A stretch of 64,000 bases of DNA from a virus. The DNA is taken from the IMG/VR virus record IMGVR_UViG_3300043464_001679, positions 14,840 to 78,839 of that record; one strand, 5' to 3'. Under the pieces are notes generated by a model that worked only from the letters and a program-made list of their open reading frames with translations, ran no database searches and was not told the origin of the DNA. Shown piece by piece: positions 57,923 to 59,787 of this stretch. Positions within the stretch are counted from its first letter, which is position 1, and each line of letters starts with the position of its first letter. The position numbers and the translations under genes are program-made.

Positions 57923-57970
57923 TAACGTCCGATGATAAACAATCGTTTTAATGTTGTTTATCATTTGTTA
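57923..57970 (-). repeat. attC-like site A
   Basis: TAAC GTCCG ATGATAAACAA TCGTTTTAATG TTGTTTATCAT TT GTTA. Confidence 0.8.
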
Positions 57971-58037
57971 TAACCAGTATTTTTGTGGGATGGTTGATAA
58001 ATTAGAAATAAATTAGTATATTTGTGAAAAAGTAAAT

Positions 58038-58250
58038 ATGGATAATAGAAATAAAGTGCATTGTTTAGTATATGATTATACTGGTGACACTAATAATGTT
58101 TATGTAAGAGTTTCAAAAGTTTATGAAGTAGATGAAAATGTTTATGTTAAAATACAGAAACCTGTTGTGAATAAAGGTTTACTTCAATATCAACATAGAG
58201 ATTTATGTGGTACTGGTTGGGATGAGGGTGAAAAAAAATATTGTGTATAA
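58038..58250 (+). CDS. Cassette 1 hypothetical protein
   Basis: 70 aa; own TATATTTG promoter at 58017; stop is the TAA of site B. Confidence 0.6.
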   Translation: MDNRNKVHCLVYDYTGDTNNVYVRVSKVYEVDENVYVKIQKPVVNKGLLQYQHRDLCGTGWDEGEKKYCV

Positions 58251-58371
58251 CGGTTTGCAGCTAAACGAGGTGGCGTTTTTCACTACAAAATATTATTAAA
58301 AACACAAATTATGAATACAAAAAAAAAGTTATTAGAAAACGAAAACGAGCCATCTTGTTTAGGTGCTGTTA
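58248..58371 (-). repeat. attC-like site B (long loop)
   Basis: TAAC GGTTT GCAGCTAAACGAGGTGGC ... GCCATCTTGTTTAGGTGC T GTTA. Confidence 0.75.
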
Positions 58372-58544
58372 GCGGTAGTGATTTAGAAAAGGCTGATATG
58401 TGGTATTGCTTACATAAAAACCACGTAAACAAGTTGTTTAATAGCACTAAAAACGAATACCCACCAACCGAATTAGAAGATGTTAAAAACCCTAACCTAT
58501 GGAAAGCAGAGCATTGGAGATGGTTTCTAAATAATTACCGCTAA
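58311..58544 (+). CDS. Cassette 2 hypothetical protein (starts inside site B)
   Basis: 77 aa; EPSCLGAVSGS is encoded by the hairpin arm; stop is the TAA of site C. Confidence 0.6.
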   Translation: MNTKKKLLENENEPSCLGAVSGSDLEKADMWYCLHKNHVNKLFNSTKNEYPPTELEDVKNPNLWKAEHWRWFLNNYR

Positions 58545-58589
58545 CGGTTGAGTGTAAAAAATCGTTTTAATGTTTTTTACACTTTGTTA
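58542..58589 (-). repeat. attC-like site C
   Basis: TAAC GGTTG AGTGTAAAAAA TCGTTTTAATG TTTTTTACACT TT GTTA. Confidence 0.8.
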
Positions 58590-58633
58590 TACACAGTCAA
58601 AAATTATTTATAAACAAATTAAAATCACTTGAT

Positions 58634-58828
58634 ATGGAAATTACAAAAGAAATGATTGAAAAGGAACTTGGATATGAGATTAATAAATTCAAGTTAGAAC
58701 CACTTTATAAAGATGGTGAATGTATTGGATTAAATGTTAAAGTTGAACCGAAGAAGAAACTTGAATTTATTAATACTACGATAACTATTGGTAAAACAAG
58801 TGATTTTAATACCGATGAAAAAGAATAA
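58634..58828 (+). CDS. Cassette 3 hypothetical protein
   Basis: 64 aa. Confidence 0.6.
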   Translation: MEITKEMIEKELGYEINKFKLEPLYKDGECIGLNVKVEPKKKLEFINTTITIGKTSDFNTDEKE

Positions 58829-58842
58829 TTTTTTATTGTGTA

Positions 58843-58890
58843 TAACGTCTGATGATAAACAATCGTTTTAATGTTGTTTATCATTTGTTA
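58843..58890 (-). repeat. attC-like site D
   Basis: Identical to site A except one base (GTCTG vs GTCCG). Confidence 0.8.
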
Positions 58891-58939
58891 TGTGTAGGTG
58901 TGAATATTAAATCTTAATATTTATATATAAAAGAAAATA

Positions 58940-59350
58940 ATGAAAGATTTGAGACATTTTATTAAAACCACAATTCGAGAATTCTTGAATGAGGATACTA
59001 ATAAGTTTGATTTTATTATAGGTAAAAAATATGAATTTGAAGATTTACCTAAAAAAATTCAGAATGATATTGAAATACAATTCGATGAATATTCCGAATT
59101 ACAACCAATGGATTATTACTATGTTTGTAAAATATTAAAACCAGAAGAAATCGAAGAATATTTAATGAGTGTTTTTGGTGAATATGAAATAGGTGATGTT
59201 TTGGAAGAACCATATATGAAAAAACTAATTAAAGATATTAAAAGAAACGGATTAGACTACCCATCTGTTGGTATAGAAGGTAATCATAGAGCTTTAGCTC
59301 ATTGGTATTTAGGTAGAGATTTACCTTATCTTGAAATGATTGAAAGATAA
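58940..59350 (+). CDS. Cassette 4 ParB/sulfiredoxin-like domain protein
   Basis: LIKDIKRNGLDYPSVGIEGNHRALA..LG; N-term IKTTIREFLNE; ATATTTAT at 58917. Confidence 0.6.
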   Translation: MKDLRHFIKTTIREFLNEDTNKFDFIIGKKYEFEDLPKKIQNDIEIQFDEYSELQPMDYYYVCKILKPEEIEEYLMSVFGEYEIGDVLEEPYMKKLIKDIKRNGLDYPSVGIEGNHRALAHWYLGRDLPYLEMIER

Positions 59351-59366
59351 GCGGAACACTTACACA

Positions 59367-59455
59367 TAACGGTTGGGTGTATATGTAGTTTTTTATTTGG
59401 AAATGTCAAAACTTATTCGTACCTTTGTAAAAAAAATTACATATACACCTTGTTA
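59367..59455 (-). repeat. attC-like site E, with a promoter in its loop
   Basis: TAAC GGTTG GGTGTATATGTA ... TACATATACACC TT GTTA. Confidence 0.8.
59396..59427 (+). promoter_or_regulatory. Bacteroidota -33/-7 promoter inside site E
   Basis: TTTG-20 nt-TACCTTTG. Confidence 0.7.
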
Positions 59456-59498
59456 TAAGTATGTATTATTTTTGTTTTACCTTATAAAAAATTAAATT

Positions 59499-59696
59499 AT
59501 GTTAAAGAACAAACACGAAATTGAAAACTACGAAGAAAAATCTAAATTACTTCGTGAAAATGGTTGGGAAACTTGGTATCATGAAGACAACTGGATTAAA
59601 ACCGAATGGTGGGAACAAGGAAAGAAGATTGATATGATGGGTCGTTCAACTGATGATGTTTATGGGGATATTATAGAAAATTCAAAACAAAAATAA
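59499..59696 (+). CDS. Cassette 5 Trp-rich hypothetical protein
   Basis: 65 aa. Confidence 0.6.
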   Translation: MLKNKHEIENYEEKSKLLRENGWETWYHEDNWIKTEWWEQGKKIDMMGRSTDDVYGDIIENSKQK

Positions 59697-59706
59697 TATT
59701 ATTTAT

Positions 59707-59787
59707 AACGAACCTCTAACAACAAAGACAATTGTGTGTTTGTTTTTAGCTTTTATGATTTTGATGATCCAATTATTTTGGAAGTAA
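59707..59787 (+). pseudogene. Start-less C-terminal fragment of a membrane protein gene
   Basis: NEPLTTKTIVCLFLAFMILMIQLFWK* begins exactly at the array's terminal AAC. Confidence 0.5.

Follow-up and report, generated by a model that had tools for sequence, protein, structure and literature searches.

The window analyzed here is a stretch of 64,000 nucleotides from the IMG/VR virus record IMGVR_UViG_3300043464_001679, a single contig of 78.8 kb, and all its coordinates follow the numbering of this whole stretch. Between 57.7 and 59.8 kb, it contains six small open reading frames (ORFs) of 61, 70, 77, 64, 136, and 65 residues, all on the + strand, that alternate with DNA hairpin sites (Table 1). 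Integrons are the classic means by which bacteria capture genes; they are believed to rely on a dedicated domain of their integrase IntI and to be nearly absent from Bacteroidota. The window array is an orphan, devoid of a recombinase gene and resembling the attC-site clusters that have no integron-integrase (CALINs), and it probably belongs to an integron-like cassette system common to Bacteroidota phages and hosts. Directly observed are the anatomy of the array, the family to which its sites belong, covariation both within stems and between cassette ends, the association of related arrays with a recombinase in phages and hosts, the cassette turnover, and the breakpoints at a TAAC core, and comparison with related phages supports the CALIN-like, phage-borne cassette array that an initial annotation of this DNA had proposed. 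The system looks like a little-known cousin of the integron common to Bacteroidota and their viruses, and its carrier here would be a large Flavobacterium-type phage holding six tiny genes as swappable cassettes.

Array anatomy and site family

The five sites A to E share the frame TAAC-G-N4-stem-loop-stem-TT-GTTA. Sites A, C, and D are 48 nt long each and possess perfect 11-bp stems closed by the same loop, TCGTTTTAATG. The sequence thus bears out the initial annotation on the position of the five hairpins, their alternation with single small ORFs, the TAAC-G(4 nt)-stem-loop-stem-T(T)-GTTA layout, and the identity of the A, C, and D loops. Folded as single-stranded DNA and compared with 200 shuffles, sites A, C, D, and E reach z-scores of -3.2 to -4.3 (none or one of the 200 shuffles folding as well), while site B folds less well (z-score of -1.7). 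A strict site finder applied to the whole 78.8-kb contig reports only sites A-E, all on the + strand, besides one evident false match. The sites are thus confined to the array, where they follow the gene boundaries, and are not genome-wide elements of the repetitive extragenic palindromic (REP) type, a distribution that the annotation had named as evidence against a cassette array. Overall, the array displays the variable-length imperfect palindromes, AAC/GTT cores, and single-gene spacing of attC-type sites.

An exact scan of IMG/VR with 15 nt of the loop identifies more than 117 contigs that carry the same hairpin loop, and 77 of the matches show the full architecture with differing stems. 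The related contigs reach 250-360 kb, and their arrays count up to 18 to 27 sites at intervals of 300-700 bp, with loops that are either of the 11-nt form or 40-100 nt long; relatives of sites B and E are present among them. In a set of 22 distinct short sites from the window and the IMG/VR contigs, 98.8% of the cells pair, and 9 of the 11 pairs of the inner stem exhibit compensatory changes, a level of covariation reached by none of 500 shuffles, which confirms the stem covariation first noticed within the window. The N4 spacer correlates with the hairpin type, and adjacent sites in the related arrays often come from different families. The window contig has a G+C content of 29% and a completeness of 24% as estimated by CheckV. 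This estimate, together with the size of the related contigs, suggests that the phage is a jumbo phage, as annotated, although the record itself is a 78.8-kb fragment.

Several peculiar arrangements were met among the related sites. A 29-nt "empty" unit, GTTATAAAA-TCGTTTTAATG-TTTTATAAC, occurs either between two sites or in the gap from the last site to the terminal motif described below (L140 near 9900-9940, L046, L017, L132, and others); it is a hairpin in cassette position that shares the 11-nt loop with the short sites. Hairpins of this second type (GTTATAAAA-loop-TTTTATAAC) were considered as array starts located beside a divergent gene, and this was rejected, as their left flank is the 3' arm of the preceding long site and no divergent ORF is present. 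A conserved motif at the 5' border of the arrays was also sought with the site finder, and none could be defined. Lastly, a possible hybrid site, with a 5' arm of the AGTGTAAAAAA type and a 3' arm of the GCGTATAAAAA type, and an A-type hairpin with a truncated 3' arm joined directly to the next site were noticed at L119 3458-3505 and L120 1637-1681. Both may be scars of exchanges inside hairpins.

Pairing of cassette ends

All five cassettes of the window start with GTTA followed by six variable nucleotides (N6), and finish with the complement of their own N6 followed by TAAC. This rule was evaluated on 236 cassettes from 44 loci. On average, 5.17 of the 8 variable positions match between the start and the end of the same cassette, as compared with 2.78 for random pairs and 2.91 when the flanks on either side of a site are compared. 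The N6 words are diverse, numbering more than 40. Positions 5-10 and 12-15 covary between the two cassette ends (73-96%), while position 11 is nearly never complementary: 128 of the 167 rule-following cassettes (77%) have a G there at their start, facing a T at their end. In integrons, likewise, a cassette begins with bases that derive from its own attC site and pair with the inverse core there, and such pairing is found here for all five window cassettes; the phage pairing, however, extends to ~15 bp and includes the fixed G·T. A repeat search identified the end pairing of cassette B-C as a terminal inverted repeat (58368-58389 and 58524-58545, 20 of 22 positions paired).

Cassette turnover and breakpoints

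The genes X and Y that flank the window array recur in two related contigs, G001 and G003, at 92-96% and 82-84% identity, beside arrays that differ from it in content and order, so that the fixed gene order in relatives envisaged by the annotation as a counter-argument is not observed. Cassette A-B is 98% identical to a G001 cassette, and cassette C-D is 100% identical over all its 261 nt to a cassette of G003 (L119 3747-4007), both among unrelated neighbours. No homolog of cassette B-C was found among the related loci compared. Homologous pairs are scarce, as a comparison of 246 distinct cassette contexts yielded only 7. In five of these seven pairs, two of which involve long specific sites, the gene is accompanied by its 5' site, and the 3' site matches in two, both with the commonest hairpin type. 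Considered with the correlation between N4 and hairpin type, this co-travel indicates that the unit comprises a hairpin and its downstream gene, with the exchange point at or next to TAAC. A three-way alignment points to the same position: G001 and G003 are 100% identical from TAAC, followed by TAGATTATATC, into the recombinase gene while their last cassettes are unrelated, and the end of the last cassette of the window equals that of G001 as far as TAAC, and then diverges. Judging from these comparative breakpoints, exchange may take place at the TAAC core.

The recombinase beside related arrays

In the related contigs G001, G002, and G004, a protein of 265-271 residues with a Phage_integrase domain (PF00589) is encoded directly after an array. 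A protein search returned homologs of this recombinase at 51-100% identity in 44 IMG/VR loci. The gene is preceded by 1-18 forward sites in 37 of them, and such sites are present wherever the upstream DNA exceeds ~450 nt, except in L167, which holds a partial integrase fragment. The last site is located 215-1300 nt ahead of the start codon, the recombinase is co-oriented with the array, and almost no sites occur downstream of the gene or on the other strand. Eighteen loci were inspected, and at 17 of them the last cassette ends in a TAAC placed 55-75 nt ahead of the start codon, with a conserved TATWWTATATA directly behind it in place of a hairpin; L144 displays a variant terminal motif, ATAACGACTATATATA. 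This terminal motif may represent an attI-like site.

The best NCBIfam model for the array recombinase is XerA_Arch (194 bits for a cut-off of 220), and the protein aligns end to end with the archaeal XerA (PDB 4a8e). The integron integrase model TIGR02249 matches in two blocks only, with 159 bits for a cut-off of 265. Residues 174-207 of the recombinase stand opposite residues 178-259 of IntI4 (PDB 2a3v), the ~48 missing residues being the region of the IntI-specific insertion. The array recombinase is therefore not an IntI, and its sequence places it as an Xer-like member of the Xer/IntI family; an IntI with the additional domain (alpha-I2 region), as adjoins classical integrons, is not what adjoins these arrays. 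The initial annotation had postulated an IntI-like tyrosine recombinase elsewhere in the phage or in the host. This holds insofar as an Xer/IntI-family gene stands at the array ends of related phages and has homologs in Flavobacterium and Bacteroidales, but the enzyme is not an IntI and none is encoded in this contig. A serine recombinase (PF00239) was found neither in this contig nor in four relatives.

Among isolated phages, a protein search reports matches to the recombinase at no more than 38% identity, in the Polaribacter phages Freya and Leef and the Cellulophaga phage Ingeline. A quick hairpin scan upstream of the Freya_10 integrase did not find the TAACG...GTTA signature. The Polaribacter phages Freya_1 to Freya_10 (MT732463-MT732472) are ten near-identical isolates with lengths differing by up to 4.9 kb, and the start of their integrase, 37% identical to the array recombinase, shifts between position 68 and position 4165, indicating that the DNA upstream of the integrase is variable. 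In L167, two copies of gene X surround a C-terminal fragment of the recombinase (9226-9392, 10001-10279, 10322-10491), hence recombinase loss by rearrangement recurs in this region. Arrays and recombinase genes are very often located at contig ends in both phage and bacterial assemblies, which fits assembly breaks at repeated sites or population heterogeneity.

Genomic setting of the orphan array

The gene order is array, recombinase, X, and Y in G001 and G003, and X, Y fragment, ORF c0, array, and Y in the window. Compared with these two contigs, the window array block has thus been moved, and both the recombinase and the attI-like motif are gone from it. The first ~80 nt of gene Y are present twice, at 57641-57722 and 59812-59890. 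The upstream copy, truncated and immediately adjacent to ORF c0, is 89% identical to the allele of G001 and G003, while the full Y gene (59812-60081) is a more divergent allele. The truncated copy points to illegitimate or inter-phage recombination that moved the array block.

Chromosomal counterparts and rAID-1

Chromosomes of Flavobacterium and other Bacteroidota encode a recombinase that is 43-49% identical to the phage enzyme and possesses an extra N-terminal segment, with PF13495 and PF00589 domains. Downstream of it are ~126-nt sites with the same frame and the same end-pairing rule, amounting to 97 sites in 201 kb as compared with 8-22 in the other three strand/side classes. Across their whole length, the long phage sites (~117 nt) match the Flavobacterium chromosomal sites at 70-80% identity, and they lie on the opposite strand relative to the genes, from which it follows that the phage genes are inverted relative to the site polarity. 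If the phage locus is flipped, it would adopt the classical integron topology (integrase, attI-like site, and cassettes ending in a site), with its genes read backwards. In a sample of Bacteroidales, 23 of 61 genomes contain a homolog of the phage enzyme at 39-51% identity. Of two loci with readable downstream DNA, one has at least 11 sites of the same design after the gene. Two fetched Bacteroidales homolog loci contain no array; not every homolog, therefore, heads one. In one Flavobacterium chromosomal array (L240, reverse view, 80-2680), a two-cassette unit is apparently duplicated in tandem, its flanks recurring at 80/1335 and 585/1841.

These chromosomal loci agree in layout with the recombinase-associated acquired interbacterial defense (rAID-1) clusters of Bacteroidales, in which a predicted XerD-like tyrosine recombinase is encoded 5' of an array of short, co-oriented, low-GC genes separated by repeated intergenic motifs that were termed "reminiscent of integrons" (Ross et al. 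2019, bioRxiv 10.1101/471110). How these arrays arise is still unexplained (PMC12247911). Both systems associate a recombinase with repeated motifs between short co-oriented genes, such motifs being present in the window as well, and the Bacteroidales and Flavobacterium homologs (39-51% identity to the phage enzyme) are followed by sites of the same architecture, in part homologous to those of the phages. Membership in rAID-1 is defined by a recombinase at least 44% identical to BF9343_RS08045 and located 5' of the array, while the 39-51% values given above for the phage enzyme refer to Bacteroidales homologs and not to that protein. Moreover, rAID-1 is chromosomal and has its sites 3' of the genes, whereas the present form is carried by phages, with a flipped site polarity and the recombinase located 3' of the array in the relatives. 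A recombinase adjoins the rAID-1 array, and the window has none. The cargos differ too: rAID-1 arrays contain orphan immunity genes against the type VI secretion system, while the phage cassettes encode anti-restriction-type and unknown small proteins, and Pfam analysis of 86 phage cassette proteins returned no orphan interbacterial immunity protein.

Expression signals and cargo

The loop of site E comprises a full Bacteroidota promoter motif, TTTG-N20-TAccTTTG (59396-59427). This motif occurs only 8 times on the forward strand of the contig, another of these being located just before gene Y, and the 11-nt loops of sites A, C, and D are devoid of any promoter. An invertible-promoter segment was considered for the long sites. 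This reading was rejected, since the 11 to ~100 nt enclosed by the arms seem too short for inversion and in most cases hold no promoter. A forward ORF of at least 40 residues is present in 191 of the 246 cassette contexts and a reverse-strand ORF in 6, with a median ORF length of 79 residues. The Pfam analysis of the 86 phage cassette proteins reports 7 DNA methylases, 2 Lar restriction-alleviation proteins, and ERF, YopX, GNAT, and Arr-ms-like proteins. The six cassette proteins of the window did not return any Pfam or PHROG match.

Comparison with integrons and phage-borne elements

The phage arrays resemble integrons in their single-gene units, set apart by imperfect palindromes that vary in length and have AAC...GTT as their only fixed letters, in a spacer left unpaired where the outer paired box gives way to the inner one, and in the existence of recombinase-less arrays. 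In the relatives, the resemblance extends to a tyrosine recombinase of the Xer/IntI family and a special site at one end of the array, and to a rapid turnover of the cassettes. They differ from integrons by the lack of the ~48-residue IntI-specific insertion in the recombinase, which is moreover located 3' of the array and co-oriented with it. The hairpin travels with the downstream gene, and the genes are inverted relative to the site polarity. The outer pairing spans 15 bp with the fixed G·T instead of 7 bp. The two sides of the spacer are unequal (5 nt and 2 nt), and this asymmetry, which the initial annotation had noted as a departure from proteobacterial attC sites, is retained as one difference along with further ones such as the fixed G·T and the flipped genes. 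Some loops hold promoters, so that the cassettes are not promoterless: in place of a gene followed by its own attC site and read from the common integron promoter Pc, a hairpin is associated with a downstream ORF, with a promoter in some loops and the recombinase 3' of the array. Finally, the carrier is a large Bacteroidota phage of virulent type. In Bacteroidetes, IntegronFinder 2.0 reported nothing beyond In0 elements and a single complete integron (PMC9024848).

A few CALINs have been identified by IntegronFinder in virulent phages, including a phage of Polaribacter (Flavobacteriia) (Qi et al. 2023, PMC9892861). They share with the present arrays the clustering of attC-type sites without integrase in lytic phages and the DNA methylases in the cargo. 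In contrast, they were found with the classical attC model and are recombined by IntI1, and their description includes neither a dedicated phage recombinase nor flipped genes nor large arrays (PMC9892861). No description of the phage form turned up in the literature searched.

Among phage elements, the nearest concept is that of the promoter early stem-loops (PeSLs) of T4-type phages, which separate small ORFs by a stem-loop and a promoter (PMC4122927, PMC2839356). As in the present case, small accessory ORFs occupy a hyperplastic region of a large lytic-type phage, a stem-loop with a host-type promoter precedes the ORF, and close relatives differ by whole ORF units at the elements. In the window, the promoter is present at site E and before gene Y, and not at sites A, C, and D, and differences at the level of whole units are observed. 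However, the promoter is here inside the hairpin loop and most sites have none, and PeSLs are thought to work by sequence homology, without a linked recombinase, 4-nt cores, or cassette-specific end pairing. A homology-only exchange, without recombinase or fixed core, does not describe the present arrays, in which the breakpoint lies at TAAC between unrelated flanks and a recombinase is linked to the sites at the 37 loci mentioned above.

Proposed mechanism and alternative explanations

The mobile unit would consist of one folding site (G-N4-hairpin-TT) and the gene behind it, bounded by the 4-nt cores GTTA and TAAC. Once excised as a circle, the end and the start of the unit would pair with each other over ~15 bp, with the fixed G·T at position 11, and this pairing, the 5/2-nt bulge, and the inner hairpin would together generate one long attC-like fold. 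The short tyrosine recombinase of the Xer/IntI family, encoded after the array in phages and before it in hosts, would cut and rejoin the DNA at the TAAC core, and new units would enter at the conserved site just upstream of the phage recombinase gene. The units would bring their own expression signals, including the host-type promoter of some hairpin loops. For the window array, the enzyme might be supplied in trans by the rest of this phage, by a co-infecting phage, or by the host. Catalysis by the array recombinase, a folded single-stranded substrate, circular intermediates, and service in trans are thus what the sequence comparisons suggest, at the level of a prediction.

With a confidence slightly short of even, we extend this proposal to a gene-capture system common to Bacteroidota and their large lytic phages. 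It would be a mirror-image integron, in which an insertion-less, Xer-like recombinase cuts folded TAAC/GTTA hairpins (5/2 bulge, fixed G·T) on the gene-sense strand and the hairpin carries the promoter or other signals for the gene behind it. Orphan arrays would be serviced in trans by a host rAID-type enzyme or a co-infecting phage, with host and virus sharing a cassette pool during infection. If this is true, the IntI insertion is not needed to recombine folded single-stranded sites. A phage-borne relative with a plain Xer-like enzyme, flipped genes, and hairpin promoters would widen the definition of integrons, a concrete hypothesis for the biogenesis of the rAID-1 arrays of gut Bacteroidales would follow, and the fast turnover of small early and anti-restriction genes in large Flavobacteriia phages would be explained. 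Short, sharply delimited sites and a small enzyme bring the idea within reach of routine bench assays of excision and integration.

Several observations weigh against the assignment to an integron-like system. The 78.8-kb contig returns no match with the tyrosine recombinase family PF00589, and the relative G005 (309 kb, complete according to CheckV) likewise contains sites and no recombinase homolog. The adjacency of array and recombinase in the related phages could be partly inherited synteny rather than independent association. The setting of the window array is odd: gene Y borders it on both sides, once truncated and once complete, its last site is degenerate, and an attI-like motif is absent. 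The recombinase lacks the insertion on which IntI is believed to depend for folded attC sites. Some exchanges cross the borders of the units, since the site and leader are kept up to the ATG before different ORFs (L048, L036) and the homology of one cassette to G003 begins inside the ORF, and general homologous recombination therefore also acts. Finally, the pairing of the ends, with a position 11 that allows G·U, would fit an RNA structure as well.

The main rival explanation is that of regulatory cassettes of the PeSL type, i.e., terminator or promoter hairpins between early genes that are shuffled by general homologous recombination, possibly via mini-circles, without a dedicated recombinase. 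The layout common to the T4-type elements and the window, the promoter in the loop of site E, the site and leader modules kept before different ORFs, the near identity of sites A and D (47 of 48 positions), and the two arrays without recombinase all speak for it, and shuffling of this kind probably also operates here. As an account of the whole system it is unlikely, because it leaves unexplained the cassette-specific end pairing with its numerous N6 variants and fixed G·T, the breaks exactly at a 4-nt core between unrelated flanks, the constant position of the tyrosine recombinase and of the terminal motif at array ends, and the association of homologous sites with a homologous recombinase in bacterial chromosomes; neighbouring sites, often from different families, also have too little shared sequence for homologous exchange. 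It is still less probable that the sites act at the RNA level, as terminators or as processing or stability signals, with the cassette ends closing the mRNA into a panhandle or a substrate of RNase III and mobility being a side issue. Sites and ORFs are indeed all on the transcribed strand in one orientation, G opposite T at position 11 makes a good G·U pair in RNA, a weak U-tract (TTGTTAT) follows each hairpin, and covarying stems with a conserved loop are found in protein-bound RNA hairpins. However, the homologous sites of the bacterial arrays are opposite relative to the genes, so that the transcript there carries the complementary strand and the G·T becomes an A·C mismatch, an Rfam search of positions 57000-61000 did not return any match at E-values up to 1, and the linkage to a recombinase, the terminal motif, and the cassette turnover at the cores are left without explanation.

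The inverted ends of 15-23 bp on each GTTA...TAAC unit and the 29-nt "empty" unit found between sites might also evoke miniature transposons moved by a transposase and inserted between pre-existing hairpins. This explanation is very improbable: a transposase would need a conserved end, whereas these ends vary from unit to unit and covary, the enzyme linked to the arrays is a tyrosine recombinase and no transposase accompanies them, no target-site duplications were seen, and the hairpin usually moves with the unit.

Features of the array and its surroundings

Table 1. Coordinates of the sites, cassettes, and flanking elements of the window array.
Feature	Position	Strand	Description
Duplicated 5' fragment of gene Y	57641..57722	+	Similar to first ~80 nt of Y in G001 and G003 (~89% identity); left edge of the displaced array block
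ORF c0, 61 residues	57734..57919	+	3' end of cassette type (TTGAATATAAC), without GTTA start; end motif found again in other arrays
Site A	57923..57970	+	TAAC-GTCCG-ATGATAAACAA-TCGTTTTAATG-TTGTTTATCAT-TT-GTTA; z-score -4.25; same hairpin in dozens of IMG/VR contigs
Cassette A-B (GTTA...TAAC)	57967..58251	+	ORF 58038-58250, 70 residues; own ends complementary at 14/17, G·T at position 11
Site B	58248..58371	+	Long imperfect hairpin of ~124 nt, bacterial-type family; relative at L120 14861-14952
Cassette B-C	58368..58545	+	ORF 58311-58544 (77 residues, start within the loop of B) or 58399-58544
Site C	58542..58589	+	Stem AGTGTAAAAAA, loop TCGTTTTAATG; z-score -3.29
Cassette C-D	58586..58846	+	ORF 58634-58828, 64 residues; ends complementary at 21/23
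Site D	58843..58890	+	47/48 identical to site A; z-score -4.09
Cassette D-E	58887..59370	+	ORF 58940-59350, 136 residues; ends complementary at 14/15, G·T at position 11; relatives for the leader only
Site E	59367..59455	+	12-bp stem extending to ~20 bp, long loop with promoter; z-score -3.15; 93-100% identical to sites in L138, L120, L166, and G001
Last cassette (E+)	59452..59709	+	ORF 59499-59696, 65 residues; leader and last 33 nt match the last cassette of G001
Terminal half-site F (sixth, degenerate hairpin)	59706..59750	+	TAAC-GAACCT followed by a hairpin pairing 13 of 15 bp; without GTTA and attI-like motif; z-score -2.64
Gene Y, 89 residues	59812..60081	+	phrog_38683; right flank of the array block

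Besides the sites, a perfect 17-nt inverted repeat (ATTAATAAATTCAAGTT and AACTTGAATTTATTAAT, at 58679-58695 and 58758-58774) is located within the coding region of ORF 58634-58828. Just downstream of the array, at 60476-61900, is a TROVE/Ro60-like gene (PHROG 850, DUF2828 and DUF7788). This gene is the only part of the region with nucleotide matches in the isolate-phage collection, where it resembles sequences of T4-like Vibrio phages, Campylobacter phages, and coliphages.

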